This document shows, piece by piece, positions 3,050 to 28,869 of a DNA stretch of 64,000 nucleotides; the stretch's first letter is position 1, and every line of letters starts with the position of its first letter. Under the pieces are notes generated by a model. That model had not been told where the DNA came from and made no database searches. It worked only from the letters and a program-made list of their open reading frames with translations. The stretch is from an uncultured Acidobacteriaceae bacterium (GTDB lineage: Bacteria; Acidobacteriota; Terriglobia; Terriglobales; Acidobacteriaceae), in NCBI GenBank assembly GCA_963841095.1, contig CAWJBE010000002.1:2278-66277 (forward strand), in the 5' to 3' direction. Both the position numbers and the translations under genes were made by a program.

Positions 3050-3073
3050 TTGGGGCGGCTCGTGACGATTGAA
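3050..3073 (-). repeat. Degenerate direct repeat of the tRNA-His 3' end (putative distal att site)
   Basis: ttggggcggctcgtgacgattgaa (3050-3073) versus ttggggcggctagtggggatcgaa (28793-28816): 20/24 identical, first 11 nt perfect, same orientation. Confidence 0.65.
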
Positions 3074-3193
3074 GGAGAGCCACATTTTGACGCCTCGTAA
3101 GTTACAGAATACACGTTGCTGTAGATGCCATCAACGCCTGGGTTGCTAGTGCCCATCGGCCCATGTTGGCCTACAAACCTGGGTCATCCGCTC

Positions 3194-3276
3194 TGCGGAA
3201 AACGACTCGACGTTCGAACCCGCGACGTCTTCCGTGACGGCAACGCGAAAACGCTCAACTCACTGAAACGAGGCGC
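3194..3276 (-). pseudogene. Possible degenerate tRNA-Asp remnant
   Basis: Minus strand ...ttcagtgagttgag...ccGTCacgg aagac gtcgcgggttcga...ttccgca resembles tRNA-Asp anticodon and T-arm segments; stems do not pair fully. Confidence 0.3.
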
Positions 3277-3363
3277 AACGGATGGCTCCTTAGAGTTCCC
3301 GTCGTTTGGAAAAATCTTGGCGGCTCACGTCCCCTGGTCGATTTCAATCTCAGCATCGGCCGA

Positions 3364-3495
3364 TCACAGCTCCTGATTGTTAACGCTACCGAGGGCAAGC
3401 TCTCTCGCTTCCTTCTCCAGTCTCATGACGGCCTGAACTTCATCGAAACGCCACCGGCGAAAATCGTGCGTGTACACACCGATGTCAATCGACAT
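3364..3495 (-). CDS. Possible 43-aa small protein (MSIDIGVYTHDFRRWRFDEVQAV...)
   Basis: ATG preceded by AAGGT; no family recognised. Confidence 0.25.
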   Translation of the reverse strand: MSIDIGVYTHDFRRWRFDEVQAVMRLEKEARELALGSVNNQEL

Positions 3496-3840
3496 GAACA
3501 CCTTTCTTCCCCAACAATCGCAATTCGCATTCTCCATCCGCCGAAAATTGCGTCCCATTCGCCTGTCTCAGGTTTGAAGTCCACTCCATTGCGGCACCGG
3601 GATTCCGGTCGCTCCTCGGAGAAACGCCCGCTACATATGGTCCCTATTGCTCAGACAGCCGCGATGCCCGCAGATAGATTCAAGAGTGTAAGGGTAAATA
3701 AACGATCGCCCCGATCAAGGAATGGGAATTCATTTACTGACTCAACCCCTTATGTAGGCTGCTGCTGCCGTGTTGATGTTAGCGGCGTCAAAGCATCCCA
3801 CCCTAACCAGGGAACCGCAGACACCTTAAGGGGGTCTTAC

Positions 3841-4401
3841 ATGCGTGGAATCAAAATTCTGATTGGTACAGCAGCGTTGGTGGCCGGTATGACGTTGGCG
3901 CCGGCAGCTCAAGCGCAACTTGTGATTGACATCGGCGTACAACCAAGCTGTGCATATGGCTATTACGGCTATGCGCCATACGCTTGTGCGCCCTATGGCT
4001 ATTATGGGCCGGGGTATTTCTACAACGGCGTCTTCCTGGGCATGGGCCCATGGGGCGGCTGGGGCTACAGCCACGGCTGGGGCAGCCATCGCTTTGTGAG
4101 CGAAGGCGGAGGGAGCTATCACGGCGGACCTGGGCGTGTGTCCTATCGCAGCAGCGGCCCAGCCCGCGGCGGCGGTGCGGCTCAAAGCAGGCCTGCAGTT
4201 TCTCGTTCTAACGGGGCGCGTCCCAACGCAGGTCATGCCACAGTTGCTCGCGCCAGCGCATCGCGCCCAGCCCATGCCGCGGCTCCCCGTGCCACGGCTT
4301 CGCACGCAACAGCATCGCACGCACCGGCTTCGCATTCTGCTCCAAGCGGCGGCGGATCTCGCGGCGGTGGCGGACATGAAGGCGGCGGCGACCGGCACTA
4401 A
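3841..4401 (+). CDS. Secreted Tyr/Gly/Pro-rich hypothetical protein with low-complexity Ala/Ser/His/Gly tail
   Basis: Signal peptide (..AQA), CAYGYYGYAPYACAPYGYYGP core; paralogue at 10225-10608; followed by a hairpin. Confidence 0.75.
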   Translation: MRGIKILIGTAALVAGMTLAPAAQAQLVIDIGVQPSCAYGYYGYAPYACAPYGYYGPGYFYNGVFLGMGPWGGWGYSHGWGSHRFVSEGGGSYHGGPGRVSYRSSGPARGGGAAQSRPAVSRSNGARPNAGHATVARASASRPAHAAAPRATASHATASHAPASHSAPSGGGSRGGGGHEGGGDRH

Positions 4402-4436
4402 ACTGTAGTTGCTGAATACGACAGCAGTTGCACAAC

Positions 4437-4466
4437 AAGCGGCGGAGCATACCTGCTCCGCCGCTT
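4437..4466 (+). terminator. Intrinsic terminator-like hairpin
   Basis: Perfect 13-bp stem aagcggcggagca/tgctccgccgctt with 4-nt loop between convergent genes. Confidence 0.7.
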
Positions 4467-4553
4467 TGCATTTGCTGACACGTTTCCGAGCGCGCCGTGC
4501 TCAGGTGGGCGCAAGGGCGAATTAAATCGCGGCATGTACGAGATGTGCGAATG

Positions 4554-6143
4554 CTAGAAGACCTGGCCGCTTTTCTCCCGGTGCAGAATCTCGCCAGATC
4601 TGGCGGGCTGCCTGGCTGAATCGATTGCCTGCGATAGCTTTTGCGTCATCACCTGAAAGTGATAACCCATGACCGCCAAAGTCATCGCGGCGCCGAAGCA
4701 GCGGCGATATCGCGTCGCCGCCGCGGCAAGAAACTTCCAGTAGCTCCATTGGTGCCGGCCGAAGACTCCCTGGCGAATGATTGAGTGAACCAGCGCACGC
4801 AGGTTGGCCCGCGTCATCCAGGGTTCCGACTGCCGCGGGTGTTTCGTCACCCGCACTCCAGCCGCCGGCTTCGGGTGGGCCCGGTTCAAATAGAGCTTCA
4901 CGCGCTCATAGTAGGCCTCGCAGTCGTAAATCCTTTTCATCACCTCGCGGTAGCCTTCGACCAGCCGCGCAGAGTCCATGCGCGGCATAAAGTTCAGCCG
5001 GTCGCAAAAGGTGTTGTTGCCGCCGCCCGCGTCCACAATTCTGCCTTCCCGCCGTAAGCGCCGGAAGAGCTGCGTGCCCGGCATCGCCTGCAGCAGCCCC
5101 ACCATCGCAATCGGAATCCCGCTCTTCTCGATGAACTCGACCATGCGGTCGAAGATATCTTCCTTATCGGTGTCGAATCCCAGAATGAAGCCGCCCATTA
5201 CCTCTATTCCATAGCTCTGGATCCTGGCCACGCTCTCCAGCAAGCTGCGTCGCGTATTCTGCAGCTTGTTGCTGGCAATTAGGCCCGACTCATCCGGAGT
5301 CTCAATCCCCAGGAAGACGGATTTGAAGCCCGCGTCCTTCATCAATTGCATCAATTCGGTATCGTCGGCCAGGTTCAGCGAGGCTTCTGTAATAAAGTCG
5401 AAGCCGGCTGCCATCCGCGTGCGCCACTCAACGAGCGCTCGCAGCAGTTCCTTTGCCCGCGCCTTGTTGCCGATGAAATTGTCGTCCACGATAAACACCG
5501 ACGCGTGCCAGCCCGCCACACGCAACTGCTCCAGCTCTGCTAACACCTGGGCTACATCCTTGGTGCGCGGCCGCCGCCCGTAGATCTCGATAATGTCGCA
5601 AAATTCGCAGTTGAAGGGGCAGCCGCGCGAGTATTGCACGGTCATCGTCGAGTATCGGTTCATCTTGATCAGGCTCAAATCCGGCAGCGGGCTGGTTGCC
5701 ATCTCCGGCCGTTCTGTCGCCTGGTAGACGTGCCGCGCCGTCTTCTTTTCCAGATCCCGCGCCAGATCGGCAATCAGGCTCTCCGCCTCGCCAATCACCA
5801 CGTGATCCGCCTTTAGTTCAGCCGCGGGCACGCTGCTGGTGATGGGCCCGCCCACCACAGTGCGAAGGCTGCGCGCGCGGCAACGCTTCACAATGGCCAG
5901 CAGGGACTCGCTTTGAATGTGCATCCCGCTCAACAGAACTATGTCAGCCCATGCGAGGTCGCGGTCGCGAAGCCGCTCCACGTTTGTGTCTACGAGCCGC
6001 TTCTTCCAGGTGCCAGGCAGCAGCGCCGCTACCGTCATCAGACCGAGCGGAGGCTGTGCAGCACGTTTGCCCACGAACTTGAGCGCATGCTTAAAGCTCC
6101 AATAAGTCTCTGGGAATTCGGGGTAGATCAATAAGGCGTTCAT
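4554..6143 (-). CDS. B12-binding radical SAM protein (DUF4070 / HpnP-like architecture)
   Basis: PPLGL and VVGGP cobalamin-binding region, CPFNCEFC CxxxCxxC motif; start taken at MNALLIYPEFP (6143). Confidence 0.88.
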   Translation of the reverse strand: MNALLIYPEFPETYWSFKHALKFVGKRAAQPPLGLMTVAALLPGTWKKRLVDTNVERLRDRDLAWADIVLLSGMHIQSESLLAIVKRCRARSLRTVVGGPITSSVPAAELKADHVVIGEAESLIADLARDLEKKTARHVYQATERPEMATSPLPDLSLIKMNRYSTMTVQYSRGCPFNCEFCDIIEIYGRRPRTKDVAQVLAELEQLRVAGWHASVFIVDDNFIGNKARAKELLRALVEWRTRMAAGFDFITEASLNLADDTELMQLMKDAGFKSVFLGIETPDESGLIASNKLQNTRRSLLESVARIQSYGIEVMGGFILGFDTDKEDIFDRMVEFIEKSGIPIAMVGLLQAMPGTQLFRRLRREGRIVDAGGGNNTFCDRLNFMPRMDSARLVEGYREVMKRIYDCEAYYERVKLYLNRAHPKPAAGVRVTKHPRQSEPWMTRANLRALVHSIIRQGVFGRHQWSYWKFLAAAATRYRRCFGAAMTLAVMGYHFQVMTQKLSQAIDSARQPARSGEILHREKSGQVF

Positions 6144-6617
6144 CGGACGCTTCTCCAGGAAGGAGGGCGCCGCGCACACGAATCCGCAGATGGGCTCTGC
6201 AGTTGGTTCCAGCGCATCGCAAACTAGCGCGGCTGCGCTCCGGCGCACTCCCTCGGAGATAGGATCTCCCGCCTGGCTGGCGGAAAACTGTTCAAAAGGG
6301 ATCACTTCCCGGGGAAGGATTGGATTTTCAAGATTGAGGCCTTCTTGAGTGCCAGGGCCCGTCGACACTCTCGAGGCTCAGGCTTATTCACAAAGCGCTG
6401 CGTCGTCCGGAGACCAGGTTGACAACCAGGACGATTAACGCGACCACCAACAGAATGTGGATCAGGCTACCGGCTATGTGAAGGCTGAAGCCCAGAAGCC
6501 ACAGGACCAGGAGAACAACGAAGATTGTCCAAAGCATATACACACCTTCTTTGCATCGCGGAGCGCCTGAGGCCGGAAACCCGGCTCAGACGCACCCAAC
6601 GCATTCACAATGAGCGG

Positions 6618-7310
6618 TTAATTCGAAGCAACGGCTTGCGCCTTTGCGCCTCTGACTGCATCGATAAAGCGATCTGCCGATGCTGGCGTCGCCACTTCGC
6701 CGCGCAGAACGCGGTGTGTCGAGACGTCATGCCCGTAAAAGGCATCCATGGAATCGTCGTCCCGGCGAAGATTTGCCCCCGTCAGGGTAACTCCGGCAAA
6801 CAGGCCCTTGGCCCGCGAGTAAGTGAGGACCTCGGTATTCAGCTTCCAGTCGGTATTGGCGGAAGCATGGCGCCCCACTGGTCCGGCTGCCGCAGAAGCG
6901 TCCGCTCCAAGTTGGAAGTTGCTGGAGATCATCCGCTGCATCCCTTTATCGCCCTGAAAAACCATAACCAGGTCCACGCCTTCGACGCCGATCTGCAATC
7001 CCCAGTTGCCGCCGGTAATGGCAAAGAACGCCGGCGCGCTCCATCCATCTGCAGTCCGGCATGTGGCTACGCCCCTGCCGTTCTCCGCACCAAACACCAA
7101 ACCGCCCTTGATCATGTGCGGCACTACGGCAATGCACCTCGCGTGCTCCAGCACCTCTTGCGGGATACCCCTATCCGGCGCGGCCATGATCTGGTGTAGC
7201 ACCAGCGTTGCGTTGTCGAGCCGGTTCTGCACATCTTCGCGAGTCTCCGCGCAGGCAGTGCTTGCTACTCCTAAACCAATCAATGCCACTAACGTCATAA
7301 ACCTTTTCAT
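6618..7310 (-). CDS. Lipid-binding SYLF/YSC84 domain protein
   Basis: Signal peptide; GG.GV...WSAPAF, G.QIG, YSRAKGLFAG motifs. Confidence 0.9.
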   Translation of the reverse strand: MKRFMTLVALIGLGVASTACAETREDVQNRLDNATLVLHQIMAAPDRGIPQEVLEHARCIAVVPHMIKGGLVFGAENGRGVATCRTADGWSAPAFFAITGGNWGLQIGVEGVDLVMVFQGDKGMQRMISSNFQLGADASAAAGPVGRHASANTDWKLNTEVLTYSRAKGLFAGVTLTGANLRRDDDSMDAFYGHDVSTHRVLRGEVATPASADRFIDAVRGAKAQAVASN

Positions 7311-7633
7311 TTATTTCACCCTTTTTCTACCCATGCGCAGCGTCACTTGCTTCCGCGCACTGAGGCGCACAAGGTATCCTCACTTTAGAGACATTGACCT
7401 GCAGTGTCTGAGCAATAGGGCTCTCTCGATAGAGGCGGCCGATCAATCGATGCCGCGCGAGACGCCCTTGACGCGGACTGCACAATTTCGCAAGGTCGCG
7501 GCGCTCCGGCGAACTCTCCCCAACTCCCTTTTGCGCCAGCCATCGCAGAAAGTTCCTTTGCCCAAAGCTGGAGCTCGTCTTGAGTTCTGCCTGCAAGGTG
7601 CTTTAGTATCAGTGCATCTGGAAAGAGGGCTGA

Positions 7634-8293
7634 ATGGCGGTTGCGCGTGCAATGCCAGCGTTTGACACGGCTGCTTTCCTAGCGAGCGCCGGCTTGGGGC
7701 GAAGAATCGTCCGATTGACGCCCAAGCAGACCTTCTTTACGCAGGGAGAACCGGCCGATTCAGTCTTCTATCTTCAAAAGGGCCGCGCAAAGATTACGGT
7801 CGTGTCGCAGGCCGGCAAAGAAGCCACAATCACGCTCCTCTCCGCGGGTGAATTTGTGGGAGAAGGGTCGCTGGCAGCGATTCCTGGGCTGCGACTTTCG
7901 ACGGCCACGGCTCTTACCGGCTGCATCGCGCTCAAGATTACGCGGGAAGAGATGATACGCATAATGCACGAGGAGCCTGATTTCTCTGACTTGTTTATGA
8001 AGTTTCTGCTGGCTCGCAGCATGCGCATCCAGGCCGATCTTGTCGATCAGCTCTTCAACTCCAGCGAAAAACGGCTTGCGCGGATTCTCCTTCTGATGGC
8101 GGAGTTTGGCCAGCCAGGCAGCCCGGAAACGGCGATTCCCAAAATATCCCAGGAGACCCTGGCGGAGATGGTCGGCACTACCCGCTCCCGGGTAAGCTTC
8201 TTTATGAACCGCTTTCGTAAACTCGGCTTTATTGAATACGACGGCCGCATCCGCGTTCATAAGTCGCTGCTCAATGTGGTTCTTCACGATTGA
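7634..8293 (+). CDS. Crp/Fnr-family transcriptional regulator
   Basis: cNMP-binding-like domain (GEFVGE) and C-terminal HTH SQETLAEMVGTTRSRVSFFM. Confidence 0.93.
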   Translation: MAVARAMPAFDTAAFLASAGLGRRIVRLTPKQTFFTQGEPADSVFYLQKGRAKITVVSQAGKEATITLLSAGEFVGEGSLAAIPGLRLSTATALTGCIALKITREEMIRIMHEEPDFSDLFMKFLLARSMRIQADLVDQLFNSSEKRLARILLLMAEFGQPGSPETAIPKISQETLAEMVGTTRSRVSFFMNRFRKLGFIEYDGRIRVHKSLLNVVLHD

Positions 8294-8586
8294 GCCCTGC
8301 GTAAGTGCCTTCTCCTCAGCTCAACAATTGGTTATGTCGGCCAGTCATTCCACCGGGGACTCCGCGCCCGAGGAGTTCGGCGTGAACCCGTCGGAAAACT
8401 CTCCATTAGAAATCTCTGAGTCGTGTTCAAATCTGCTCATTATCACGGCCAATACATAGGCATACTCACTTTAGACCCTGCAGCAACGATGCAGGTTGGA
8501 GGTGAGGTACGCCTGAAGCCAAAGCAAGCCTTGCCGATGCTAAAAGCAGCGCTGATTCAACCCAAGAGTAAATTGGGGAGGGCGCA

Positions 8587-8694
8587 ATGACGATACTGCA
8601 AATGGTACTGATCCTGTGCATTTTTTACTGGGCCTTGCGTATTCCGCGAGAGCCGGTTCGTGAACGCGAACGCACGCACCGGTCACGGCGATAG
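8587..8694 (+). CDS. Putative 35-aa membrane peptide (MTILQMVLILCIFYWALRIPREPVRERERTHRSRR)
   Basis: GGGGAGG RBS upstream, single hydrophobic helix followed by Arg-rich tail; below the ORF-track length cutoff. Confidence 0.4.
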   Translation: MTILQMVLILCIFYWALRIPREPVRERERTHRSRR

Positions 8695-8798
8695 AGCTGG
8701 CTCCTGAGCAAAATCAGTCAGGATGTGTACGCCGCGCCATGCCCATTCTGCCGAGACCGGTGTGCTTTCGGCCGCGGCGCACGGCAGCAGTGTGATTC

Positions 8799-10079
8799 TT
8801 GCTTATGATGCGTATATTACGTCTACCTTTTGCGCGCGCGGCGTCTGTACTTGCGGTCATGCTGGCGTCCAGCGGAGCTCTATTTGCTTATTCCGTTCTT
8901 ACGCATGAAGAAATTGTCGACTTGGCATGGACGTCCGAGATTCGCCCGCTCCTGTTGCAACGATTTCCAAATCTGACCGACGATCAGATCAAGGACGCCC
9001 ACGCTTACGCCTATGGCGGCTCGGTGATTCAGGACTTGGGCTACTATCCCTTCGGCAGCAAAGACTTCAGCGACCTGGTTCATTACGTTCGCAGTGGGGA
9101 TTTTGTTATCGAGTTGCTTCGCCAAAGCCAGAATGCCAACGAGTATGCCTTCGCCTTGGGAGCGTTATCGCACTATACGGCGGACATTGACGGTCACCCC
9201 GCAGTCAATCAAGCTGTCGCGCTCCGCTATCCAAAGCTGCGAGCCAAATATGGCAATTCGGTTCGCTATGCGCAGGACACCACGGCTCATCTGAAGACCG
9301 AGTTCGGATTCGACACGCTGCAGGTTGCGAAGAATCGATATGCGTCGGACCAGTACCACGATTTCATCGGCTTCAAAGTCGCGCAACCGCTGCTGGAGCG
9401 GACCTTTCCAATCGTATACGGACTGCAACTAAAAGACGTACTCGCGCACGAGGACCTGGCGATCGGATCGTATCGCTTTTCAGTCAGCCGGCTGATTCCG
9501 CAAATGACCAAGGTCGCGCTCCAGACGCACAAGAAGGACCTGATGCGAGAGACGCCCGACTTCGCAAAGCGGAAGTTTCTGTATCGGCTATCGCGCTCCG
9601 ACTACGAGCGGGAGTGGGGAAAGACCTATACGAAGCCGGACTTCGGCACGCGGGTACTATCCGCACTGTTGTGGTTCATTCCCAAGGTCGGCCCTTTCAA
9701 AGGTTTGGGGTTCAATAACCCAACACCGAAGACGGAAGACTTATATATCAAGAGCATCAATGCTACCGTCGACCAGTACCGCGTCTATCTTGAGGAGGTG
9801 CGTGCAGGCACATTGGCCCTGCCCAACTGCGACCTTGATGACGGCAAAGCAACCAAAGCAGCGGAATACACGCTCGCGGACGCGACTTACGCCGGCTTGC
9901 TGGCCAAATTGAAGGCGCAGAAGTTCGATGGCACTTCGCCGCAACTGCGCGATAACATTCTCGATTTCTATTCCGACCTCTCCCTGCCAATCGAGACCAG
10001 GAAAGACCCGGCTCGCTGGCAAAGTGTCTTGACGGATCTTGACGAATTGAAAGCGACGGCCTCTTTGCCGGCTAAGTGA
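8799..10079 (+). CDS. Zinc-dependent phospholipase C family protein
   Basis: Signal peptide then YSVLTHEEIVD; QDLGYYP, HY, SHYTADIDGH and HLKTEFGFD motifs. Confidence 0.8.
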   Translation: MLMMRILRLPFARAASVLAVMLASSGALFAYSVLTHEEIVDLAWTSEIRPLLLQRFPNLTDDQIKDAHAYAYGGSVIQDLGYYPFGSKDFSDLVHYVRSGDFVIELLRQSQNANEYAFALGALSHYTADIDGHPAVNQAVALRYPKLRAKYGNSVRYAQDTTAHLKTEFGFDTLQVAKNRYASDQYHDFIGFKVAQPLLERTFPIVYGLQLKDVLAHEDLAIGSYRFSVSRLIPQMTKVALQTHKKDLMRETPDFAKRKFLYRLSRSDYEREWGKTYTKPDFGTRVLSALLWFIPKVGPFKGLGFNNPTPKTEDLYIKSINATVDQYRVYLEEVRAGTLALPNCDLDDGKATKAAEYTLADATYAGLLAKLKAQKFDGTSPQLRDNILDFYSDLSLPIETRKDPARWQSVLTDLDELKATASLPAK

Positions 10080-10224
10080 GGATGGCGTCTCCCTTGAACC
10101 CCGGACAGCTTCAGCGCGAACACCGCGCCTGATCCAAACTGCTCAGACTCCCATGAGTTAAGCCGTTACGCTCAAAAAAGGTTGAACCAGGCAAATGACT
10201 ATCCAACCACGGTGAGGAAAATTC

Positions 10225-10608
10225 ATGAATAGCATCAAGTTTCTTGCTTTAGCGGCGGTTGCCGCATTCGCCATAGCAGCTGGCGCTCCCAAGGCAGCGG
10301 CACAGGTCACAATCGAAATCGGAGCCGCCCCCGACTGCCCCTATGGTTACTATGACTACGTCCCTTATAACTGCGTTCCTGACGGCTACTATGGTCCGGA
10401 ATGGTTTAACGCTGGAGTCTTCATCGGCACCGGCCCGTGGTTTCATGGGCACGACGACTTTCAGGGCAAGGTCGACAACACCTTCGACCCACAGAACGGA
10501 TATAGCGGCCCGTTGCCCAAAGCCGGCGATAAGCCCGCAGCGCAGCGGAGATCTCCTGAGCAATTCAAGGGAAATGAAGTGCGCGATGGGCGCGGCAACA
10601 AAAAGTGA
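10225..10608 (+). CDS. Secreted Tyr/Gly/Pro-rich hypothetical protein (paralogue of 3841-4401)
   Basis: GAGG RBS, signal peptide, CPYGYYDYVPYNCVPDGYYGP core. Confidence 0.8.
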   Translation: MNSIKFLALAAVAAFAIAAGAPKAAAQVTIEIGAAPDCPYGYYDYVPYNCVPDGYYGPEWFNAGVFIGTGPWFHGHDDFQGKVDNTFDPQNGYSGPLPKAGDKPAAQRRSPEQFKGNEVRDGRGNKK

Positions 10609-10837
10609 AGAAAACCAGGGCAACATAGCGCAAAACAAACCAATCCCAACCCGTGCAAACGGACCAGCGACCGAGTTGTCCAGATGAGCATTAGAGGCGC
10701 CGATTCTCAATCTTACGTCGATCTATTGACGCCTCGTTGAACAGGCAAGAAACCGTATTCTCTTTGATCAAGGCGCCGAAGATGCATTTCGGAGCTTTTA
10801 TCAAAGCCTCACAAGTTGAACCCACGGAGGTGGACCG

Positions 10838-11047
10838 GTGAATCGAGATCGAGTGAAGGGTACTATCGACGAAATGGTGGGAAGCGCCAAGCGAAAGGCG
10901 GGCCAGTTGACTGGCGATACGCCGCTTCAGGTCAAGGGAATCGCACAGCAGGTTAAGGGAAAACTTGAAAATACCCTCGGTAAGACCAAAGATGCAGTTC
11001 GCGGAGCCAACCAGGGAACTAAGTCACGAAATGGCGCGCGCGCCTAA
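10838..11047 (+). CDS. csbD: CsbD-family general stress protein
   Basis: NRDRVKG...GSAKRKAGQLTGD..LQVKG.AQQVKGK pattern; GGAGG RBS with GTG start. Confidence 0.88.
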   Translation: MNRDRVKGTIDEMVGSAKRKAGQLTGDTPLQVKGIAQQVKGKLENTLGKTKDAVRGANQGTKSRNGARA

Positions 11048-11251
11048 CTTGAGTTACTCTGAGTCGAAGGTCGAGTCAAGTTAGCGCGCCTAATTCGTAT
11101 CGCTGCGTCAAGATGAATTCGGCATGAACGGGAGTCGATGGCTTGTGCAGAGATTAGGCGGCTTTGCTTTCTTGACCGACCGGGTGCTCGAGCGATCACA
11201 AACCTGGGCGGACATGCCGCGATAAGCAGTGGGTGCATACTCTAATCTTCT

Positions 11252-12517: not shown

Positions 12518-12527
12518 GCTCGCAGGG

Positions 12528-16479: not shown

Positions 16480-17496
<1,017 letters not shown>

Positions 17497-19156: not shown

Positions 19157-19164
19157 GAGTTCTC

Positions 19165-19953: not shown

Positions 19954-19982
19954 ATTTGCGTTACGAGCGCTTCAAACAATCG

Positions 19983-20833
19983 TTAAGGAAAGAAAACGAG
20001 AATGAATTTCACGAGAACGACGTCGGCCAGGATAAGAAAAAGCGAGGCCAGCACGACCGAGTTGGTGGCCGCACGGCCCACACCCGCAGCCCCACCGCGC
20101 GTGCGCATTCCCTGGAAACACGCGATGAGCCCGATGATCAGCCCATACACGGCGGTTTTGAATGTCTGTGGTAGGAATGCACTGAAGGTGGCGCCATTAA
20201 AGCCGCTTGCAATGTACTGATGGAACGAGAGCGGCTCAACAAGAGCCTGCGCAAACCAGCCAGTCAGCATGGCGCATGCGTCGGTGGCAAGAGTTAGCAG
20301 CGGCAGCATCAGGATGCAGGCTAGTATGCGTGTCGCGGCCAGAAGCCTGTAGGGGTTGATCGCGGATGCCTCAATGGCGTCGATCTGCTCGGTTACTTTC
20401 ATCGATGCCAGCTCCGCGCCCATGCCGGCGCCCACGCGCCCGCTTACGACCAGGCCGGTAATGACCGGGCCCATGACTTGGACAACGGAGTACACGAGCG
20501 TCGCAGGAAACATCGATTTGGCGCCGAATCGCGTGAGACTGTAGCGGGCTTCCAGCGAAATGACAACGCCAATTGCGGCGCCTGCCATGGCGACCAGCGG
20601 CAGCGACTTCGACCCAACTTCGTCCAGCTGCCGAATCAGCTCACGCCATTCATATGGCGGCGTAGCCGCTGCCCGCAGGACTCGCCAGGAAAAGATTCCC
20701 AATTCCCGAACCACTCGAAAAAACCGTTGAAAAGCTCCATGGCAGAGTTCGCAATTGCGGACGTGGGTGCGCTCCGCCGTACCTGAAGTGGAGGGCTTAT
20801 GTCCGCAACAGATGTAAATCCGCGTTCGCTCAT
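19983..20833 (-). CDS. mlaE: MlaE-type ABC permease with one frameshift near 20706
   Basis: GPVITGLVVSGRVGAGMGAELASM, EQIDAIE, GVGRAAT; N-terminal part (..FFEWFG) lies in another frame and is restored by one extra G. Confidence 0.88.
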
Positions 20834-21666
20834 TGATTTGGGCCTGGGTCCGGTGCGCCGTGCCCGTTGTTCAGGTGCATGCGTGAAATCAAGGCATGGG
20901 GTCCGCTATAGAAAAATTCAAGAGCAATGTTGCCGCCCACATAACTCAACAGGCTGTAATTGCCCATGCGGAACGCGTCCTTTGCGCCGAAGCGGTCCGG
21001 ATACCACCCGTAAACCGCAATCATGGAGCCCGCATACGGCGCCGCAAGCGCGGGAAATGAGAAGACGCGATGGCCATCTTGCCCGCGGCGCGCTGTCAAA
21101 GTGGAGATCACGGCATGGCGCAACCGTGGAAATGTGCCACTGCATTCGCAGCGGTAGTACAAAGTATCTTCCCTAAAGGCTTCCGCAAGCCCGTAGCGCG
21201 TGGTTGTTCCAATCGTCGCAATGGCGAAGTCGGAACCGAACCTCTTACCGAAACCCTCGACGCCCTGACCCCACTCAGGCGGAGAATTGGTCCACTGGTT
21301 GATTCCAGCCGCGAACGCGGCGCCGATGAGTGGATACGGACCGAATGCGTCGAAAGCATAGTTGTTCACCTTCATTTTTTCGGTCGGCCGAACGTAGGTC
21401 AGGTCAAGCTTTCCAGGATTCGTGATTCCTGTAGTTGCCGACGGATCTTCAGAAGAGGCCAGCGCTTGCGATCGCGCCAGTCCTGGCATCGCGGCCATGG
21501 TCGCCGTGACCAACACCAGGAGTTTTGCCAAGTGAACCACCGTGTCTAGAGCCTTTTTGCCCGTTTGGACGACGCGTCCTCCCGCCAGACGGTTCTGGCA
21601 AGCCAACAGGACATGCGACTCCGAGATCCACTCCGATGACCTCATCGTCGCTCCTTTGATTGGCAT
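20830..21666 (-). CDS. Conserved hypothetical, probably exported/outer-membrane protein
   Basis: Stop overlaps the mlaE start; PPEWGQG.EGFGKRFG, DTLYYRC, WYP motifs; true start probably downstream of 21666. Confidence 0.65.
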   Translation of the reverse strand: MPIKGATMRSSEWISESHVLLACQNRLAGGRVVQTGKKALDTVVHLAKLLVLVTATMAAMPGLARSQALASSEDPSATTGITNPGKLDLTYVRPTEKMKVNNYAFDAFGPYPLIGAAFAAGINQWTNSPPEWGQGVEGFGKRFGSDFAIATIGTTTRYGLAEAFREDTLYYRCECSGTFPRLRHAVISTLTARRGQDGHRVFSFPALAAPYAGSMIAVYGWYPDRFGAKDAFRMGNYSLLSYVGGNIALEFFYSGPHALISRMHLNNGHGAPDPGPNQ

Positions 21667-21946
21667 CGCCCATGTCAGTCACAGCATGCGTCAAGATTGA
21701 ACTGCCACATCGTTGGCTACGCCCATAGAGATAGTTGCAGAGTGGAAGCCTCAAAGGATGGTCACATTTGCACGCAATCGCACGTCGTGTGCTTCCGCAC
21801 CGACCTCGCCGGTCAATCAAGGCGGAATCGACCCCCTCGGACCAAGTGGTCTTCGGGCCTGTGTCCAAAAGAGCACAGTTTTGCTCTGGATTTCAGAGGA
21901 TAATTGAAGAAGCCAGTTGTTTTTACTGTTCGCTGAGGAGCCTGCC

Positions 21947-22459
21947 ATGCCTGAAGTTCATGCTTTCCCTTCCATCCCGACAAAGATCCTGTTGCCCATC
22001 GACTTTAGCTCATCTTCTCAAGCGGCTTTGGAGATAGCTGCTGATCTTGCGAAGCACTTTCATGCGGAACTCTTTCTTCTGAATGTTCTCCCTATGTTTC
22101 CCGCCACGACGCTCCCTGACTTTGTTCCCGAAGGCGAATTCCTGCAGAAGGGCAGATCGCTCGCGGAGCGACATTTGGCCAAGTGCCATACAGCTCTTGC
22201 GGCCAGGGGGGTGAAGTCAACTTCCAGTGTCGAGGTTGGAAACGATATCGCCGGGAACATCATGGAAGTTGTGGAGCGAGAGCATATTGATATGGTGGTG
22301 ATCTCCACACACGGCATCTCCGGCTGGCATCCGCTGGTCTTCGGATCAATTGCCGAAAAGGTGACAAAACTCGTGCGATGCCCTCTGTTGCTTCTGCGTT
22401 CTGCCAAGCCCGGCGAAAATGCAAAGACCCAGTCTGAGCATTCTGGAAGATGGTGGTAG
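21947..22459 (+). CDS. Universal stress protein
   Basis: KILLPIDFS, DMVVISTHG...FGSIAEKV...CPLL; GAGGAG RBS. Confidence 0.92.
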   Translation: MPEVHAFPSIPTKILLPIDFSSSSQAALEIAADLAKHFHAELFLLNVLPMFPATTLPDFVPEGEFLQKGRSLAERHLAKCHTALAARGVKSTSSVEVGNDIAGNIMEVVEREHIDMVVISTHGISGWHPLVFGSIAEKVTKLVRCPLLLLRSAKPGENAKTQSEHSGRWW

Positions 22460-22816
22460 GGAAGACTTGTATCCCCTCCTCGTGGCGTTCAAACGTGCCG
22501 GAGTTCCAGCGCATTTCTCAGAGTGAGCAATATAGTACAGACAGCCTTTCTGGAACCGGGCGATGATGGACAGAGATTGATCGTAGTCGCGGTTGATAGT
22601 GGGCCAAACTTCCCCCATTTTTTTGCGCCTGCTTCACGAGTAGCCACCTCGAGATTGCCTTGCCGGCGCGAGCCGGCATGAAATGCCGTTCACTCGACCA
22701 ATTCGCTTGTGGGTTTTGATTCATTTGCCAATCACTGCAAACGCGGCACACCGCGGCGACGCGTGACTGGATACGAAAAAGCCAACCAGGCAAATAGTCC
22801 GCAACGAGGTAGCGTT

Positions 22817-23521
22817 TTGACAAGTAAAAGAGTCACTGGATTCGATTCTGCAACCTTTCTTGCAAACGCAGGGCTCGGCAGAACTATTATCGAGCTCAAG
22901 CCAAAGCAGACATTTTTTGGCCAGGGAGACAAAGCAGATTCTGTTTTCTTTTTACAGAAGGGCCGCGCAAGAGTCACTGTCGTCTCGCAGAGGGGCAAAG
23001 AAGCCACGATCACCCTTCTATCCGCCGGCGACTTTGTCGGAGAGGAATCTCTCGCGGCGATCATCGGACTGCGTTTGGCGACCGCGACCGCCTTGAATAC
23101 CTGCACAGCCCTCAAGATTAGCAGAAACGAAATGATCCGAGTGATGCATGACGAGCCTGCATTTGCCGACATATTCCTTAAGTTTCTGCTGACCCGCAGC
23201 ATGCGAACGCAGGCTGATCTTGTCGATCAACTGTTTAACTCAAGTGAAAAGCGTCTGGCGCGGATTCTCCTGTTAATGGCGGAATTTGGCAAGCCAGGTC
23301 AGCCAGAAACCTTCATCCCGCCGATTACTCAGGAAACTCTCGCCGATATGATCGGCACCACACGGTCTCGCGTCAGCTTCTTTATGAATCGTTTTCGCAA
23401 GCTCGGCTTTATCAGCTATAACGGCCGCATCCAGGTGCATAAGTCACTCTTGAACGTGGTCCTGCTCGATCAATTGCCTGAACGCAACGCGCAGAAACCC
23501 GCCATTCATCCGATCCCATAA
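22817..23521 (+). CDS. Crp/Fnr-family transcriptional regulator (second copy)
   Basis: Very similar to 7634-8293, HTH TQETLADMIGTTRSRVSFFM; TTG start after GAGGT. Confidence 0.92.
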   Translation: MTSKRVTGFDSATFLANAGLGRTIIELKPKQTFFGQGDKADSVFFLQKGRARVTVVSQRGKEATITLLSAGDFVGEESLAAIIGLRLATATALNTCTALKISRNEMIRVMHDEPAFADIFLKFLLTRSMRTQADLVDQLFNSSEKRLARILLLMAEFGKPGQPETFIPPITQETLADMIGTTRSRVSFFMNRFRKLGFISYNGRIQVHKSLLNVVLLDQLPERNAQKPAIHPIP

Positions 23522-23576
23522 GCAACTTCAATTCGAAGAGCAAAAGAACATCGCGGTCTGAATCCGAATCTCGTCA

Positions 23577-24407
23577 TCAGTGCGAGTGCCCTTCCGCACG
23601 TGCCGCGGTCTCTTCCTCGGTGACGACGAAAAAACTGCGCAAGTCAGCCTGTCCAAACGAAGTGGTCATCGCCACATCGGCGGCATCGCGTCCCGTCGCC
23701 ATCAGCACACGGCCAATCCGCGGTTCATTGTTGCGCGCATCGAAGGTCCACCAGCGCCCGCCTAAATAAGCCTCGAACCATGCGCTGAAGTCCATGGGAA
23801 GCCGCGCGGGCACGCCGATGTCACCCAGATACCCAGTCGCATAGCGCGCCGGAATATTCAGCGCGCGGCAGAAAGTGATCGCAAGATGTTGAAAGTCGCG
23901 GCATACGCCGACGCGTTCAGTAAACACATCCAGAGCAGTCTTTGTGGGCCGGGCCTGCTGGTAGTTGAACGCCACTTTAGTGTGCACCCAGTTGCAAATG
24001 GCTTGCACGCGGCCCCAGCCGGGTGCGATCTGTCCAAAGAGTTCCAGCGCAATGGTGGAAAAACGATCCACTTCGCAGTAGCGGCTGTTGAGCAGGAAGC
24101 TGAGCATTTCGTGTGGCAGATCGCCCACAGCCGATTCGCGCGCTGACCAATTGATCTCATCGAGCAATCCGGTGTCGCGAATGAGCGTGGAATTGAAAAG
24201 CCGCAGTTGCCCCTGAGGAGCGACAAACCGCGCACAGCGGTTCCCGAAGCCGTCAACGTAATGGGTGATATCCAGTCGCGGTTCGGTTTGCACCTCGTCC
24301 GGCTCCAGCAGGTCATGCGCGCGCGAAGGATGCACATTGAGAAGCGCCACCATTGCCACGGTGGCCGGAATATCGAATTGAATGTCGTATGCCAGCCGGA
24401 TCAACAT
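23577..24407 (-). CDS. Transglutaminase-family protein
   Basis: SRYC, GVCRDFQHL catalytic Cys, DFSAWFE, WWTFDAR, GRDAADV. Confidence 0.9.
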   Translation of the reverse strand: MLIRLAYDIQFDIPATVAMVALLNVHPSRAHDLLEPDEVQTEPRLDITHYVDGFGNRCARFVAPQGQLRLFNSTLIRDTGLLDEINWSARESAVGDLPHEMLSFLLNSRYCEVDRFSTIALELFGQIAPGWGRVQAICNWVHTKVAFNYQQARPTKTALDVFTERVGVCRDFQHLAITFCRALNIPARYATGYLGDIGVPARLPMDFSAWFEAYLGGRWWTFDARNNEPRIGRVLMATGRDAADVAMTTSFGQADLRSFFVVTEEETAARAEGHSH

Positions 24408-24474: not shown

Positions 24475-26235
24475 TCACTTGAGCCTTTCAGCCATTAGGT
24501 GGTCCGCTACTCGAATCGCATTCGCGATGATGGTGAGAGAAGGATTGACCGCACTCGCTGAGACGAAACATGAAGCATCGACAACATAAAGATTGTCGAG
24601 TTCGTGCGCCTTGCACTGTGGATCAAGCACGCTGGTTTTCGGATCTGTTCCCATTCGGCAGGTGCCGTTTTGATGGCCGACGCCTTCAAGGGGAATGCGC
24701 TTCTTGAAGTATGCATGAAGCGGAACAGATGTGCTGGCGTGGCCGGCCTTCTTGAGGATGTCGACCCAGCGGTCTTTGAGGCGCTCGAAGGATTCGACAT
24801 TGTTTGACGTGTAAGAGAGCTGAATCCTCCCAGGTGGAGTATTTGTCACGGGCTCGGACTCGTTGCTGCGGCCAGTATCTCCCGAAGGATGGGCTCCGAC
24901 AAGACCTGGTTGATACGCTTCGACCGAGAGCGGAGTAGTGTTGTGCAGGGTGACGCGATTCTCAGGGTCGGGAAGATCTTCCGTGGTGAGCCACCAGGGA
25001 ACAGCGTGGTGTTTCATTCCTTCCAGGACAAGTTCCGGAGTGAATGGTGGAGCGTTGCCCTTCATCATCTCAAAGTGAAAGCTGCCAACCGGTTGCACCT
25101 GTCCTAGCGGAAACGGATAAGCTGGGTCGGTATCTTTGAGGTAGAAATCGTTGGTGCCCCAGGTCTTGGTGTAGCTGTCCTCGTTGCGGTCAGTGCTGAT
25201 TGCGAGCAGTGCGTCGGCTTGATGATACATGAAGTTGCGTCCCACCTGATCGGAGCGGTTGGCGAGACCTTTAGGATGCTTATCGTTGGCTGATGCCAGA
25301 AGAATCACTGCTGAGTTTATTGCCCCCGCGCACACAGCGAAAAGATCGGCCGCGTAGATGGCAGCGTTGCCGTCCTTTGATGCCGGCGGAGCATTCGCCA
25401 CGGCTGGTTCGAGAGCAGACCCATAAGGCACGCCCGCGCCGGAGTGGATCACCTCGACTGAAGTCACAGCGGTGCCGCTGCTGTTCGTGAGGAGGCGTAT
25501 CACGCGCGAATTCGTCATTAAGGTGACATTGGGTAAGTGCATGATCTGCCGAATGCAGTTGATATCCGCATCGGATTTTGCGTGGACCAGACATGGGTAG
25601 CCGTCGCACGTATCGCAGCGTACGCATTTTGAGGCAAGAGGATTTGCCTCGTCGCGCTTGAGACCGAGCGGAATCGGGAAGGTGTTAATCCCAAGCTTCC
25701 GAACATCGTCCTCGATGGACTGCATGCGCGGTTCGTTAGCGAAGGCGGGATAAGGATACTTCTTGGAATGGAACGGCTCGGTGGGATCGAAAGAAGAGCC
25801 AAATCCGCCTGGAACGGATGGGGCGGCGCCAAGATCGCCGTGAACGTGAAAAAGCTCTTCCGCGCGTGTGTAATAGGGTTCCAGATCGGAGTAGGAGATG
25901 GGCCACGCCGGAGAAATGCCGCCCTTATGGTGGATGACTCCGAAGTCTGCGGCACGCATGCGAAACAGGGCCGCGCCGTACACTTTTGTTTGTCCACCTA
26001 CATAATAGGACTGCTGCGGGTGCAGGTCTTTGCCGTCTTTATCCTGCCAGGTTTCCTTGGTGTGATATCGATTATCGAGGAAAACAGCGGAGGTGTCCCA
26101 GTTCAGCTTTTCCTGAGGCATGAACGGGCCCCGCTCCAGGATGAGAATGTTTTTGCCGGCTTGAGCCAGGTGGAAAGCCAGGGTTCCACCGCCCGCGCCG
26201 GTTCCGATAATGATTGCGTCGTATTGAGTCGCCAT
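24475..26235 (-). CDS. GMC-family oxidoreductase
   Basis: IIGTGAGGG FAD motif, GGQTKVYG, CVRCDTCDGYPC, HQNGTCRMG, NPSLT. Confidence 0.92.
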   Translation of the reverse strand: MATQYDAIIIGTGAGGGTLAFHLAQAGKNILILERGPFMPQEKLNWDTSAVFLDNRYHTKETWQDKDGKDLHPQQSYYVGGQTKVYGAALFRMRAADFGVIHHKGGISPAWPISYSDLEPYYTRAEELFHVHGDLGAAPSVPGGFGSSFDPTEPFHSKKYPYPAFANEPRMQSIEDDVRKLGINTFPIPLGLKRDEANPLASKCVRCDTCDGYPCLVHAKSDADINCIRQIMHLPNVTLMTNSRVIRLLTNSSGTAVTSVEVIHSGAGVPYGSALEPAVANAPPASKDGNAAIYAADLFAVCAGAINSAVILLASANDKHPKGLANRSDQVGRNFMYHQADALLAISTDRNEDSYTKTWGTNDFYLKDTDPAYPFPLGQVQPVGSFHFEMMKGNAPPFTPELVLEGMKHHAVPWWLTTEDLPDPENRVTLHNTTPLSVEAYQPGLVGAHPSGDTGRSNESEPVTNTPPGRIQLSYTSNNVESFERLKDRWVDILKKAGHASTSVPLHAYFKKRIPLEGVGHQNGTCRMGTDPKTSVLDPQCKAHELDNLYVVDASCFVSASAVNPSLTIIANAIRVADHLMAERLK

Positions 26236-26325
26236 ATGAATTGAGATGCGAAAAGCAGATTACCTTTTGCTAAGGCCGCCGCCAGATAAGGCATCAATTT
26301 TCGCTTCACTCCTTTCTTGGGGAGA

Positions 26326-27180
26326 TTAAGGGAGATCTGTTTCGACCGAGAGGCCGGCCTGGTGCGAGTGGCGATGCAATGGGAAGTGACAGAGAAAAGG
26401 ACACGGATAGTTCGGATCGGGGTGCAGCTTGGCGCAGAGGACATTCTCTTTGCCGTAGACGCGGATATAAATCTCTGCCGAGGTCATCATGCCGAGGAGC
26501 GGCGCCGCAAAGTAGAGCCAGATCGCGGTCCAAACGTTGGCGAACACCGCCGATCCGGTCGTTCTCGCGGGGTTAATGCTAAAGCCTGAAACGGGCGCGA
26601 AGACTAATACGTAGAACATAATCAGAATGCCAACCAGGTAGCTCGTGTATCGAGCGAGCGGCGGTCGATTCGAGAACCAAAGCACGACCAGCATGAGGAG
26701 AGCGGCCATAAAATACTCCGCGCAAAACGCAGCGGCTGTTCCGCCCCATCGAGGAACCGTAACCGCAGGCACCGTAACCGCGTAGTCCACCGCAGGAACG
26801 GCTAGGCTGCCGCGCAGGCAAAGCGCCGAAAGCCCTACACCGCAGATCCCCCCGATGAATTGCGATAGAACATAGAAACCTGCATCCCATTTGTTGATTT
26901 TGCCGAGCCGGAAATAGGTCAACGTGATGGCAGGGTTGAAGTGAGCGCCGGATCGCCTTCCCATAGGCGAACGAATAATAAGAATAGCTGTCGCGCCCAT
27001 GGACATTCCCATCAATAGTCTTCGCAATGCGCTGCTGGGCAGAAGATGCGGCGCGGGCAGTTTCGGATCAAAAAGCCAAACAGTGAAGAAGCAGGCCGAG
27101 ATCATGAAGATCGCGAGCTCGACACCTTCATCGACATACAGGCGCCAATGGCGCTTAAATGCGGCCCTTAATGGGTGCAT
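26326..27180 (-). CDS. MIP/aquaporin-family channel
   Basis: SGAHFNPA and SINPAR motifs; His/Cys-containing C-terminal tail. Confidence 0.9.
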   Translation of the reverse strand: MHPLRAAFKRHWRLYVDEGVELAIFMISACFFTVWLFDPKLPAPHLLPSSALRRLLMGMSMGATAILIIRSPMGRRSGAHFNPAITLTYFRLGKINKWDAGFYVLSQFIGGICGVGLSALCLRGSLAVPAVDYAVTVPAVTVPRWGGTAAAFCAEYFMAALLMLVVLWFSNRPPLARYTSYLVGILIMFYVLVFAPVSGFSINPARTTGSAVFANVWTAIWLYFAAPLLGMMTSAEIYIRVYGKENVLCAKLHPDPNYPCPFLCHFPLHRHSHQAGLSVETDLP

Positions 27181-27502
27181 CGCAGCCGATGAAGTGAAAC
27201 TGTTTTGCTTTCCGGCCAGACAACTCCCCTTCCCTGTCACTGACGAGCGTAACTCTCCTGCGAAACTCAATCGTCCAAACTCCCGCCAGCTAGCAAACAG
27301 TAACTTCGTAGTTCTGACCCTCGCAGCGAAGGTCTTCCGTCCAAAAAAACGGGAGACGAGGACACTTCCCAGTCTAAGACGTTGATCTCAACAGGAATGA
27401 CCAGTATTGCTCTATCGATCTACGCATCCCGGATGAGTACCTGCACTCAATGGGACAGTGCGTTCTCCGTCGATGAGTTAGCATAACGACTTGAGGTGAA
27501 GT

Positions 27503-28270
27503 ATGCGTTTGCAGGGGAAAACCGCCGTTGTAACGGGCGCAGGAACAGGAATCGGCCAGGCAATTGCAATCGCGTTCGCTCGGGAGGGCGCAGCCGTGGT
27601 CGTAGATTATGTTGGCGACGCGTCCGTCCCGAATGACACAATCACAAAAATCGACGCGATAGGCGGGAAGTCGCTCGCCGTCGATGCGGATATCTCGATT
27701 ACAAATCAGGTGAACGCCTTGATTCAGCAGACGGTTGCCGCTTTTGGCAAGCTTGATATTTTTGTGAACAATGCCGGCATCGAGAAGAAGTTTCCCTTCG
27801 TCGACTACCCACTGGAAGAATGGCAGAAGATTATGGCAGTCAATCTGACTGGGCCGTTTCTATGCTCTCAAGCTGCGGCGAAGCAGATGATAGCGCAAGG
27901 CGGCGGCGGCCGCATCATCAATATTTCTTCAATTCATGAAGATCTTCCCATGCCGACGAACGCTCCTTATTGCGCTTCCAAAGGCGGCCTTCGCATGTTG
28001 ATGCGCACCATCGCTGTCGAACTGGCGCCACATCAAATTACCGTGAACAATATTGGCCCTGGCGCTATCTACACGCCAATTGACAAAGATGTTGAAAGCA
28101 ATGCGAAGCTCAACGATCAGATACTGGCGGAAATTCCTCTGGGGCGATGGGGAAAGCCTGAAGAAGTAGCGCAACTGGCGGTTTATCTTGCATCGGATGA
28201 CGCCGCTTATATTACGGGCAGCACTCACTTCATCGATGGCGGCATGTTGAGAAACTCTGGCAGCTTATAG
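27503..28270 (+). CDS. Glucose 1-dehydrogenase-like SDR
   Basis: TGAGTGIG, NNAGIE, SSIHE, YCASK, PLGRWG. Confidence 0.9.
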   Translation: MRLQGKTAVVTGAGTGIGQAIAIAFAREGAAVVVDYVGDASVPNDTITKIDAIGGKSLAVDADISITNQVNALIQQTVAAFGKLDIFVNNAGIEKKFPFVDYPLEEWQKIMAVNLTGPFLCSQAAAKQMIAQGGGGRIINISSIHEDLPMPTNAPYCASKGGLRMLMRTIAVELAPHQITVNNIGPGAIYTPIDKDVESNAKLNDQILAEIPLGRWGKPEEVAQLAVYLASDDAAYITGSTHFIDGGMLRNSGSL

Positions 28271-28411
28271 GGAGCTACACCCTCTCGCTTGATCTGGGGC
28301 TATCCTACCGCACCATGCGAGCCAGCGGTTTCAGGCTCGAAGCGGAATGCTGCACAGGTGTCATTGGGCAGAATGAGATACCTCGTTGGATGCAAGGATA
28401 ATTGCGATTAT

Positions 28412-28567
28412 GATGCTCGCGCCAAGCTCCTCGCCAACCCACGCGTCAGGCTGGTCGAGCCTCGGCACGGCGGCCACTGCGCTTTTCTGTCGTTCGAGCC
28501 CGGCGACGCAGGCTTCTGGGCGGAGAGAACACTACTCGACTTTCTCGTCGCGACAGTAGAAGGCTAA
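28412..28567 (+). pseudogene. 3' fragment of a YheT-family hydrolase gene
   Basis: ARAKLLANPRVRLVEPRHGGHCAFL...WAERTLLDFL matches the C-terminus of 1908-2966 (RARLLANPHIDFVEARYGGHCAFL...WAEATIVRYL); no N-terminal part present. Confidence 0.8.
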
Positions 28568-28594
28568 CCGTGGCGGCCGACTGGTTGGCTTAGA

Positions 28595-28680
28595 TCAGTT
28601 CAGACTCAGATTGTCGATGACCAGATGGATGGTATCGGCCTCCGGGTAGCTGCCCACCTTTACAGCCTTGACCGTGGCGT
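28595..28680 (-). mobile_element. IS630-family transposase fragment
   Basis: Minus frame reads GSYPEADTIHLVIDNLS, matching the IS630 DDE YP.A..IHLV.DNL motif. Confidence 0.6.
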
Positions 28681-28793
28681 CTGTATCAGGCGAGATGCAC
28701 GGCAAGATTTATACCTTGCTTGACCCATATTGGCAGATCGCCAAATCCAAAATTTGCCAAATCTAACTAATATAAAGAGATAGAGATATAGCT

Positions 28794-28869
28794 TGGGGCG
28801 GCTAGTGGGGATCGAACCCACGACATCCTGAGCCACAGTCAGGCGTTCTGCCGCTGAACTATAGCCGCC
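28794..28869 (-). tRNA. tRNA-His (anticodon GTG)
   Basis: GGCGGCTATAGTTCAGCGGCAGAACGCCTGACTGTGGCTCAGGATGTCGTGGGTTCGATCCCCACTAGCCGCCCCA, with G-1:C73 and CCA. Confidence 0.97.

Follow-up and report, generated by a model that had tools for sequence, protein, structure and literature searches.

Genomic islands linked to tRNA genes in Proteobacteria typically show a hotspot at the tRNA 3' end, a partial repeat at the far side, variable content and integrase pseudogenes. An integrase with NikA/relaxase functions and no type IV secretion fits the definition of an integrative mobilizable element (IME) (PMC5704250). NBU1 of Bacteroides, for example, is a tRNA-Leu-targeting IME with a tyrosine integrase and a Mob relaxase (PMC5704250, Table 1). 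Cis-mobilizable elements (CIMEs) are decayed IMEs or integrative and conjugative elements (ICEs) that keep attL and attR, and were first described beside ICESt1/ICESt3 in Streptococcus thermophilus (PMC5704250). Here we examined a 64,000-nucleotide (nt) stretch of DNA, the window, from an uncultured Acidobacteriaceae bacterium (assembly GCA_963841095.1, contig CAWJBE010000002.1), in which 25.7 kb separate a yheT-like gene from tRNA-His. We consider it very probable that this interval is a decayed IME, close to a CIME, of a family whose target is the tRNA-His 3' end.

Several features of the island are CIME-like. It lies between two attachment-site (att) scars of a site-specific element, at a site used by live relatives, and tandem accretion at the same site was seen in one of them (G017). 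An integrase remnant and an IS630 fragment are present in the source genome (G000), and the NikA/relaxase backbone is gone. The differences are that the far att core is degenerate (20/24), its recombination competence being doubtful; that the host is a soil acidobacterial-type metagenome-assembled genome (MAG), with tRNA-His as target; and that the cargo is mostly native-like and the element is known here from sequence alone. The complete relatives in G057 and G116 are closer to NBU1: they combine a tyrosine integrase at a tRNA 3' end, which is duplicated as a direct repeat, with a relaxase and accessory protein, and have no type IV secretion genes. They differ in size, at 35-56 kb including large metabolic cargo where NBU1 has about 10 kb, and in the Cys-rich integrase N-terminus of their family, and the G000 copy is without any of these genes. 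The tRNA hotspot, far partial repeat, variable content and decayed integrase are shared with the proteobacterial islands; unlike theirs, the content in G000 is not virulence or resistance genes, and much of it is common to sister species elsewhere in the chromosome.

The tRNA-His site and the two ends of the island

G000 is a 5.05 Mb assembly, 91% complete; the other G numbers are relatives in the same very large genus, which is probably one of the Acidobacteriaceae. More than 400 species representatives were available, and 328 genomes had a tRNA-His match. Genes for tRNA were called with ARAGORN, and cargo domains by Pfam scans of open reading frames (ORFs). Cargo DNA was compared with 24 sampled genus relatives and yheT with orthologues in 41 relatives. 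The target site and island ends are as follows, in window positions.

1824-1900, minus strand: tRNA-Arg(tct) (ARAGORN), a core neighbour found beside yheT in every relative examined, and a second integration hotspot
1908-3083, minus strand: yheT-like alpha/beta hydrolase (Pfam Abhydrolase_1/6), core gene at the flank of the insertion site
3050-3073: far attachment-site scar, the 24-mer TTGGGGCGGCTCGTGACGATTGAA, a displaced copy of the terminal 24 nt at the tRNA-His 3' end
3074-3180: conserved far arm shared by the family, about 100 nt, aligning with the far arms of G057, G116, G017 and G021
about 3195-3250, minus strand: decayed tRNA-Asp-like fragment (anticodon arm to T arm), 30/35 against tRNA-Asp and tRNA-Val genes
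28412-28606, plus strand: 3' fragment of a yheT paralog, about 65 codons with one stop, 48% at the amino acid (aa) level against yheT residues 325-387
28604-28652, minus strand: internal 49-nt fragment of an IS630-family transposase gene, SYPEADTIHLVIDNLS
28656-28700, minus strand: integrase 5' remnant of 15 codons, VHLA*YRRHGQGCKG, from six-frame reading and tblastn of G057 integrase residues 1-45
28701-28793, minus strand: integrase leader, or near arm, 84% identical to the G017 arm and aligning upstream of the intact G057 integrase
28794-28868, minus strand: tRNA-His(gtg) (ARAGORN), whose last 23-24 nt (28793/4-28816) are the attachment-site core
29520-29596: tRNA-Pro (ARAGORN)

The gene order tRNA-Arg, yheT, tRNA-His, orf154, tRNA-Pro is conserved in the genus. 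Removal of the interval gives back this order, with yheT and tRNA-Arg beside tRNA-His, as an earlier note on the window had proposed. Empty tRNA-His/yheT/tRNA-Arg loci, which that note had suggested looking for in related genomes, were found in at least 43 genomes of the genus with tRNA-His 38-376 nt from yheT, a site being scored as empty when the two lay less than 400 nt apart; spacing was 38-223 nt in G009, G011, G012, G014, G016 and G024. Occupied sites, with 2.7-141 kb on one contig between tRNA-His and yheT, were present in at least 18 genomes including G000. Both counts are lower bounds, obtained by combining tRNA-His and yheT 5' coordinates among the matches listed. Insert content varied between genomes, and the G000 cargo was in no other genome's insert. 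A second tRNA-His match occurred in about 45 of the 328 genomes, mostly not among the matches listed; those inspected were partial far-end copies in G017, G021, G057 and G116 and a full-length copy in G145. Overall, the hotspot was filled in roughly a quarter to a third of scoreable species. The tRNA-His sequence was 100% identical in most of the genomes with a match, and its 3' end forms one border of the island, pointing into the interval.

The opposite border is marked by the repeat at 3050-3073, which matches 28793-28816 at 20 of 24 positions in direct orientation. This repeat, first reported in the earlier note, is real and coincides with the tRNA-His 3'-end position of insert-free relatives: it lies about 111 nt from the conserved yheT 5' block, the place of the tRNA-His 3' end in genomes with an empty site. 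Orthologues of yheT (64-76% identical) were present in 37 of 41 relatives, with alignments that mostly begin near residue 41-50, and the true start is probably M40 at 2966, 84 nt from the repeat, which lies upstream of it. When genomes with empty sites were aligned to window positions 2700-3700, the alignments ended exactly at 3073, where the 24-nt core stops, and the chromosomal side of the repeat is similar to the tRNA-His flank of these genomes. The match is also rare, and not common by chance as the note had allowed for: only one other site of at least 20/24 was found on both strands of the assembly (10 Mb). Far repeats beside yheT in G017 (24/24), G116 (24/24), G021 (23/24) and G057 (23-24/24) share the terminal nucleotide of the G000 repeat, which has 4 mismatches versus 0-1 in complete elements. 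The far arm was additionally matched in G073, G113, G181, G302, G069 and G263. Between this arm and the cargo lie about 460 nt of unmatched DNA and the tRNA-Asp-like fragment, the latter being common to G069 at 85%. The repeat, the arms and the empty sites in relatives bear out a site-specific insertion at the tRNA-His 3' end with a degenerate repeat.

At the near end, the approximately 95 nt between tRNA-His and the integrase start align among G000, G017 and G057. The 'gccaaat' motifs and AT-rich patch at 28740-28790, previously likened to an att-flanking region, form the conserved leader of a lost integrase gene and align with intact copies in G057 and G017. The integrase remnant that follows aligns codon by codon with the intact G057 and G116 integrases, with ATG changed to GTG and an in-frame TGA at 28686-28688. 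At the same position G017, G021, G001 and G005 read M-G/A-L-x-L-Y-R/G-R-H-x-K/R-x-C. The remnant represents the N-terminal end of a tyrosine integrase family. Its frame stops after codon 15, with the IS630 fragment at the truncation point and the yheT paralog fragment beyond it. The IS630 fragment is 90% nt identical to G000:C13:207247-207295, within an IS630-type transposase frame (SYPEADTIHLVMDNLSSHN; SYPEADTIHLV[I/M]DNLS). The label integrase-less thus needs correcting: the island's own integrase was once present, and the 5' end of that gene is kept beside the tRNA, cut by the IS630 fragment. The claim that no recombinase lies inside holds for intact genes and fails for the 15-codon integrase remnant and the 49-nt transposase fragment.

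The yheT paralog fragment is closest to G011:C87 (79% nt), which stands in an ordinary chromosomal region that shares synteny with G000 contig C26. Its capture by imprecise excision at another host's tRNA-His/yheT site was considered and rejected. Such an event would take the att-facing 5' end of yheT and leave it at the element's far end; the fragment is the gene's 3' end and is tRNA-proximal, and the paralog closest to it lies in unlinked chromosomal surroundings.

Complete and decayed members of the element family

Intact integrases of 415-428 aa were found 55-150 nt from tRNA-His in at least eight relatives (G389, G191, G173, G116, G057, G072, G302 and G379), and truncated or frameshifted integrase remnants at tRNA-His in G377, G369, G145, G305, G017, G002, G001, G005 and G021. 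Intact family elements were present in about 10% of 400 species. The N-terminus of the family is distinctive and Cys-rich (LYRRHxKxCK...W.RC.CP); the G057 integrase (426 aa, PF00589) begins MPLALYRRHRRECKG.

The complete element of G057 (L119/L120; G057:C16:21013-56250) spans 35.2 kb. From tRNA-His it carries the integrase, a 173-aa ORF, a NikA-like protein, a 709-aa MobA/VirD2-type relaxase with a TraI-like middle domain, and metabolic genes, and it closes with the far repeat and an arm adjoining yheT. The cargo of about 30 kb includes GFO/IDH/MocA oxidoreductases, a TIM-barrel isomerase-like protein, a thiamine pyrophosphate (TPP) enzyme, an aldehyde dehydrogenase, a PfkB kinase, a LacI regulator, TonB-dependent receptors and an MFS transporter, and resembles a catabolic cluster of the inositol/phytate type that includes TonB-dependent receptors. 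Genes for type IV secretion were not seen in this element. The G116 element (56 kb) has the same backbone (integrase 70%, NikA 89%, relaxase 91%). By their predicted gene make-up, both are complete IMEs.

Other relatives showed later or mixed states. The G021 insert (L011/L012, G021:C1:1232017-1263797; 31.8 kb) occupies the tRNA-His site with a 23/24 far repeat and an integrase stub only, and its cargo includes a contractile injection system resembling a phage tail (sheath, baseplate J, AAA ATPase and eCIS core domain). Accretion at tRNA-His was seen in G017, where an old integrase stub, 84% identical to that of G000, precedes a second integrase gene that has its full length but carries a frameshift. 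The same NikA/relaxase backbone occurs in G017 with a different integrase at tRNA-Asp. Together with the tRNA-Asp-like fragment in G000, this suggests that integrase modules may have been exchanged within one element family.

In a live member, a tyrosine integrase of about 420 aa would be encoded beside the tRNA, reading away from it, and would recombine a 24-nt core identical to the tRNA 3' end. The NikA-like protein and MobA/VirD2-type relaxase would, from their domain content, allow the excised circle to be moved by a helper conjugation system. The G000 interval lacks an integrase of its own and the relaxase of an IME, with ends homologous to those of the complete members in G057 and G116. 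Pfam scans of the interval ORFs revealed no recombinase, and no type IV secretion, virion or packaging genes that would mark an ICE or prophage. The G057 NikA and relaxase had no match in the window, and no origin of transfer (oriT) region was identifiable, the NikA/relaxase region being deleted.

Because the two att scars, the two arms and the integrase stub correspond to parts of this family, the shell can be securely assigned to a decayed member of it. In G000 the integrase is reduced to its leader and 15 codons with a stop and is cut off by the IS630 fragment, the NikA/relaxase backbone has been lost, and the far repeat has diverged to 20/24; while these features are observed, any sequence of decay events is inferred.

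A second integrase in the window belongs to a different site.

665-1807, plus strand: intact tyrosine integrase (PF00589, 78 bits; SAM-like domains), ending 17 nt from the 3' end of tRNA-Arg

Its N-terminus (MSLFKRGGRWFY) is unlike that of the tRNA-His integrase family. It is part of a separate tRNA-Arg island that runs leftward off contig C2, outside the tRNA-His island. The tRNA-Arg island is apparently live, and its hotspot is just 1.2 kb from the tRNA-His site. Elsewhere the tRNA-Arg site holds an integrase in G017 and a remnant in G019; in G009 a homologue of the island's phospholipase C gene lies directly past tRNA-Arg.

Origin of the cargo

The cargo was identified by Pfam, apart from the Cys-rich ORF.

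3638-23530: genus-resident accessory block, colinear with G020:C8 and partly with G017:C6
7634-8293: Crp/Fnr regulator Crp1
10838-11047: CsbD
11252-12517: Nramp
12528-13241, minus strand: VTT/DedA
13967-14305: OmpA-like ORF
16480-17538: 6PGD-like dehydrogenase
17687-17845, minus strand: Cys-rich 52-aa ORF between the 6PGD-like gene and mlaD, in a stretch 83% conserved with G020
17951-20714: MlaD-OmpA, MlaF and MlaE
21917-22459: Usp
22709-23521: Crp/Fnr regulator Crp2
23577-24407, minus strand: transglutaminase-like protein, 94% identical in G011:C2, where it is directly beside the 6PGD-like gene
24475-28270: cluster of GMC oxidoreductase, MIP channel and SDR
24475-26235: GMC oxidoreductase of this cluster
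26326-27270: MIP (aquaporin family)

The cargo listed in the earlier note was mostly confirmed by Pfam (CsbD, Usp, two Crp/Fnr, Nramp, MIP, VTT/DedA, Mla, OmpA-like and GMC). The exception was metallothionein: a Cys-rich 52-aa ORF exists, but it matched no Pfam family and its identity as a metallothionein was not confirmed. The block at 3638-23530 encodes a secreted Gly/Tyr-rich protein, a B12-radical-SAM enzyme, Ysc84, Crp1, a Zn-phospholipase C, CsbD and Nramp, together with DedA/VTT, the OmpA-like and 6PGD-like proteins, the Cys-rich ORF, MlaD-OmpA/MlaF/MlaE, Usp and Crp2.

Except for small insertions and deletions, this block is colinear with G020:C8:125334-146621 at 78-85% nt identity, and its ends (3638-8290 and 22806-23507) are colinear with G017:C6:170629-177743. 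No tRNA-His, att repeat, integrase or relaxase was found beside the G020 or G017 copies; in G020, where integrase and relaxase were also not found next to the colinear block, the tRNA noted was a tRNA-Ser 8 kb away. Protein identity of the block to G017 was 77-90%, versus 72-90% for unrelated neighbouring orthologues. Parts of the block occur in G009, G011 and G014, each in other neighbourhoods, and the MlaD-OmpA fusion was present in 8 of 24 relatives. This patchiness and the varied neighbourhoods mark the block as an accessory, relocating module of the genus. No second copy was found in G000, nor a clean 'donor empty site' for it there; its flanks differ in every relative.

The 6PGD-like and transglutaminase-like genes are adjacent in G011:C2 (92-94% aa) and split by the Mla-Usp-Crp2 segment in G000, an arrangement that shows apparent internal reshuffling of the block. 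The GMC-MIP-SDR cluster at 24475-28270 had no DNA match among the 24 sampled relatives. Its homologues (82-92% aa), frequently accompanied by MIP and SDR and often linked to Crp, Ysc84 or 6PGD-like genes, were found in MAGs titled Acidobacteriaceae, Terracidiphilus, Granulicella or Edaphobacter. By these comparisons the cargo is largely genus-native, non-foreign DNA. The proposal that the island delivers a whole general-stress module was not supported, since 3638-23530 occurs elsewhere in relatives at orthologue-level identity and without mobility genes.

Crp1 and Crp2 are paralogs (67% nt identity over 300 nt) of a Crp/Fnr family with at least 7 copies per relative genome, often beside Usp, Ysc84 or CsbD genes. 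Signs that the cargo is a co-regulated module were sought without success: canonical FNR (TTGAT-N4-ATCAA) and CRP (TGTGA-N6-TCACA) boxes were not enriched, and a repeat scan of window positions 1-30000 gave no shared intergenic motif.

The block of about 20 kb may have been carried by the element, or it may have moved into the shell later by IS630-mediated or homologous recombination. We lean slightly toward later entry. This is favoured by the IS630 fragment and truncated native paralog exactly at the inner edge of the integrase stub, by the unmatched DNA and tRNA-Asp-like fragment between the far arm and the block, and by identity to sister species at orthologue level. Carriage by the element is favoured by the large chromosome-like blocks of complete members and by a block location that differs in every genome examined.

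In the strongest form of carriage, which corresponds to the earlier note's view, the whole 25.7 kb came as one cargo, and the blocks in G020, G017, G011, G009 and G014 are copies spread by elements whose shells have vanished. We regard this as quite possible, if somewhat short of an even chance. Complete members do hold chromosome-like metabolic cargo of 30-50 kb, or in G021 a contractile injection system, the block is patchy with a different neighbourhood in every genome examined, and island GC is 3 points under the genome mean. However, identity of the block to G017 equals that of flanking orthologues, as vertical descent predicts, and the G020 and G017 copies have no adjoining integrase, relaxase, att repeat or tRNA-His. 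The sequences between the integrase remnant and the cargo at one end, and between the far arm and the block at the other, resemble rearrangement scars.

Mobility and significance

No match to the family integrase, NikA or relaxase was found elsewhere in G000 in the 91%-complete assembly. A trans-acting integrase within G000 was sought and rejected: the best match to the G017 island integrase was 37%, from a Xer-like pair on C20. An empty site or circle was sought in contigs covering 1500-5500 from four soil metagenomes in which this organism occurs; every contig crosses the left junction and none terminates at 3050-3073, although the search is a weak one in that contigs drop rare variants. Taken together, the missing genes, the four core mismatches and the occupied-only contigs indicate that the element is most likely fixed in place. 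The earlier view of an old, now immobilised island therefore agrees with the missing integrase and relaxase and the 20/24 far repeat. Its other suggestion, mobilisation in trans, is unlikely from within this genome, whose 91%-complete assembly has no family integrase or relaxase and whose island has 4 far-core mismatches against 0-1.

Might the island still work as a CIME, with an incoming family element supplying integrase and relaxase after tandem integration, so that the stress module is excised or transferred? Both att scars and both arms are kept, intact family elements are common in the genus, accretion has taken place at the tRNA-His site in G017, and the concept is established (PMC5704250). 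Set against this are the mismatched far core, the lack of a cognate integrase, relaxase or co-resident element in the genome, the lack of an identifiable oriT region and the missing excised or empty form in the metagenome contigs, which hide rare variants. We consider a functional CIME improbable. That there was no insertion at all, the interval being ancestral and deleted in relatives with a chance 20/24 match, is scarcely credible: the cargo is genus-typical with near-normal composition, but the same close tRNA-His/yheT junction recurs in 43 or more genomes, and in 18 or more this exact point is taken by unrelated inserts; complete elements have homologues of the repeat, of both arms and of the integrase remnant, and the 10 Mb searched hold one other 20/24 match only.

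Several observations nevertheless weigh against a decayed IME. With the assembly 91% complete, a cognate integrase could sit in the missing part. No empty-site variant appeared in the metagenomes, leaving movement of the segment in this lineage without direct evidence. The relatives compared are all other species, with yheT identity of about 70-76%. The similarity of the block to G017 and G020 is that of ordinary core genes, and most of the interval does not pass a naive test for a 'foreign island'. Composition, a check named in the earlier note, deviated only mildly: island GC is 56.3% versus 59.4% for the genome (7.6th percentile), with tetranucleotide distance within the top 16% of genome windows. 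The strongest compositional outlier in G000 is instead contig C24:1-64000 (GC 65-70% vs 59%), which could be MAG contamination or a foreign element.

Read as a decayed IME, the puzzle of an 'integrase-less island' becomes an ordinary, documented case, in which the integrase scar is readable and live relatives exist. For soil Acidobacteriaceae-type genomes, whose mobile elements have been poorly described, this has some value. The tRNA-His hotspot, the integrase family, the 24-nt core and the two arms are annotation handles across hundreds of MAGs. The locus also urges caution in island calling: an att-bounded interval may hold mostly genus-native DNA. More broadly, one IME family may be a general shuttle for 20-50 kb ordinary chromosomal blocks, swapping tRNA-His and tRNA-Asp integrase modules and fixing blocks when its shells die, a tentative idea that we think rather unlikely. 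Its examples would be the stress and membrane genes of G000, the inositol-type catabolism of G057 and the contractile injection system of G021. If true, the window would hold a core-like stress module caught in transit, and such shuttling would help explain the scrambled gene order seen in genomes of this genus.

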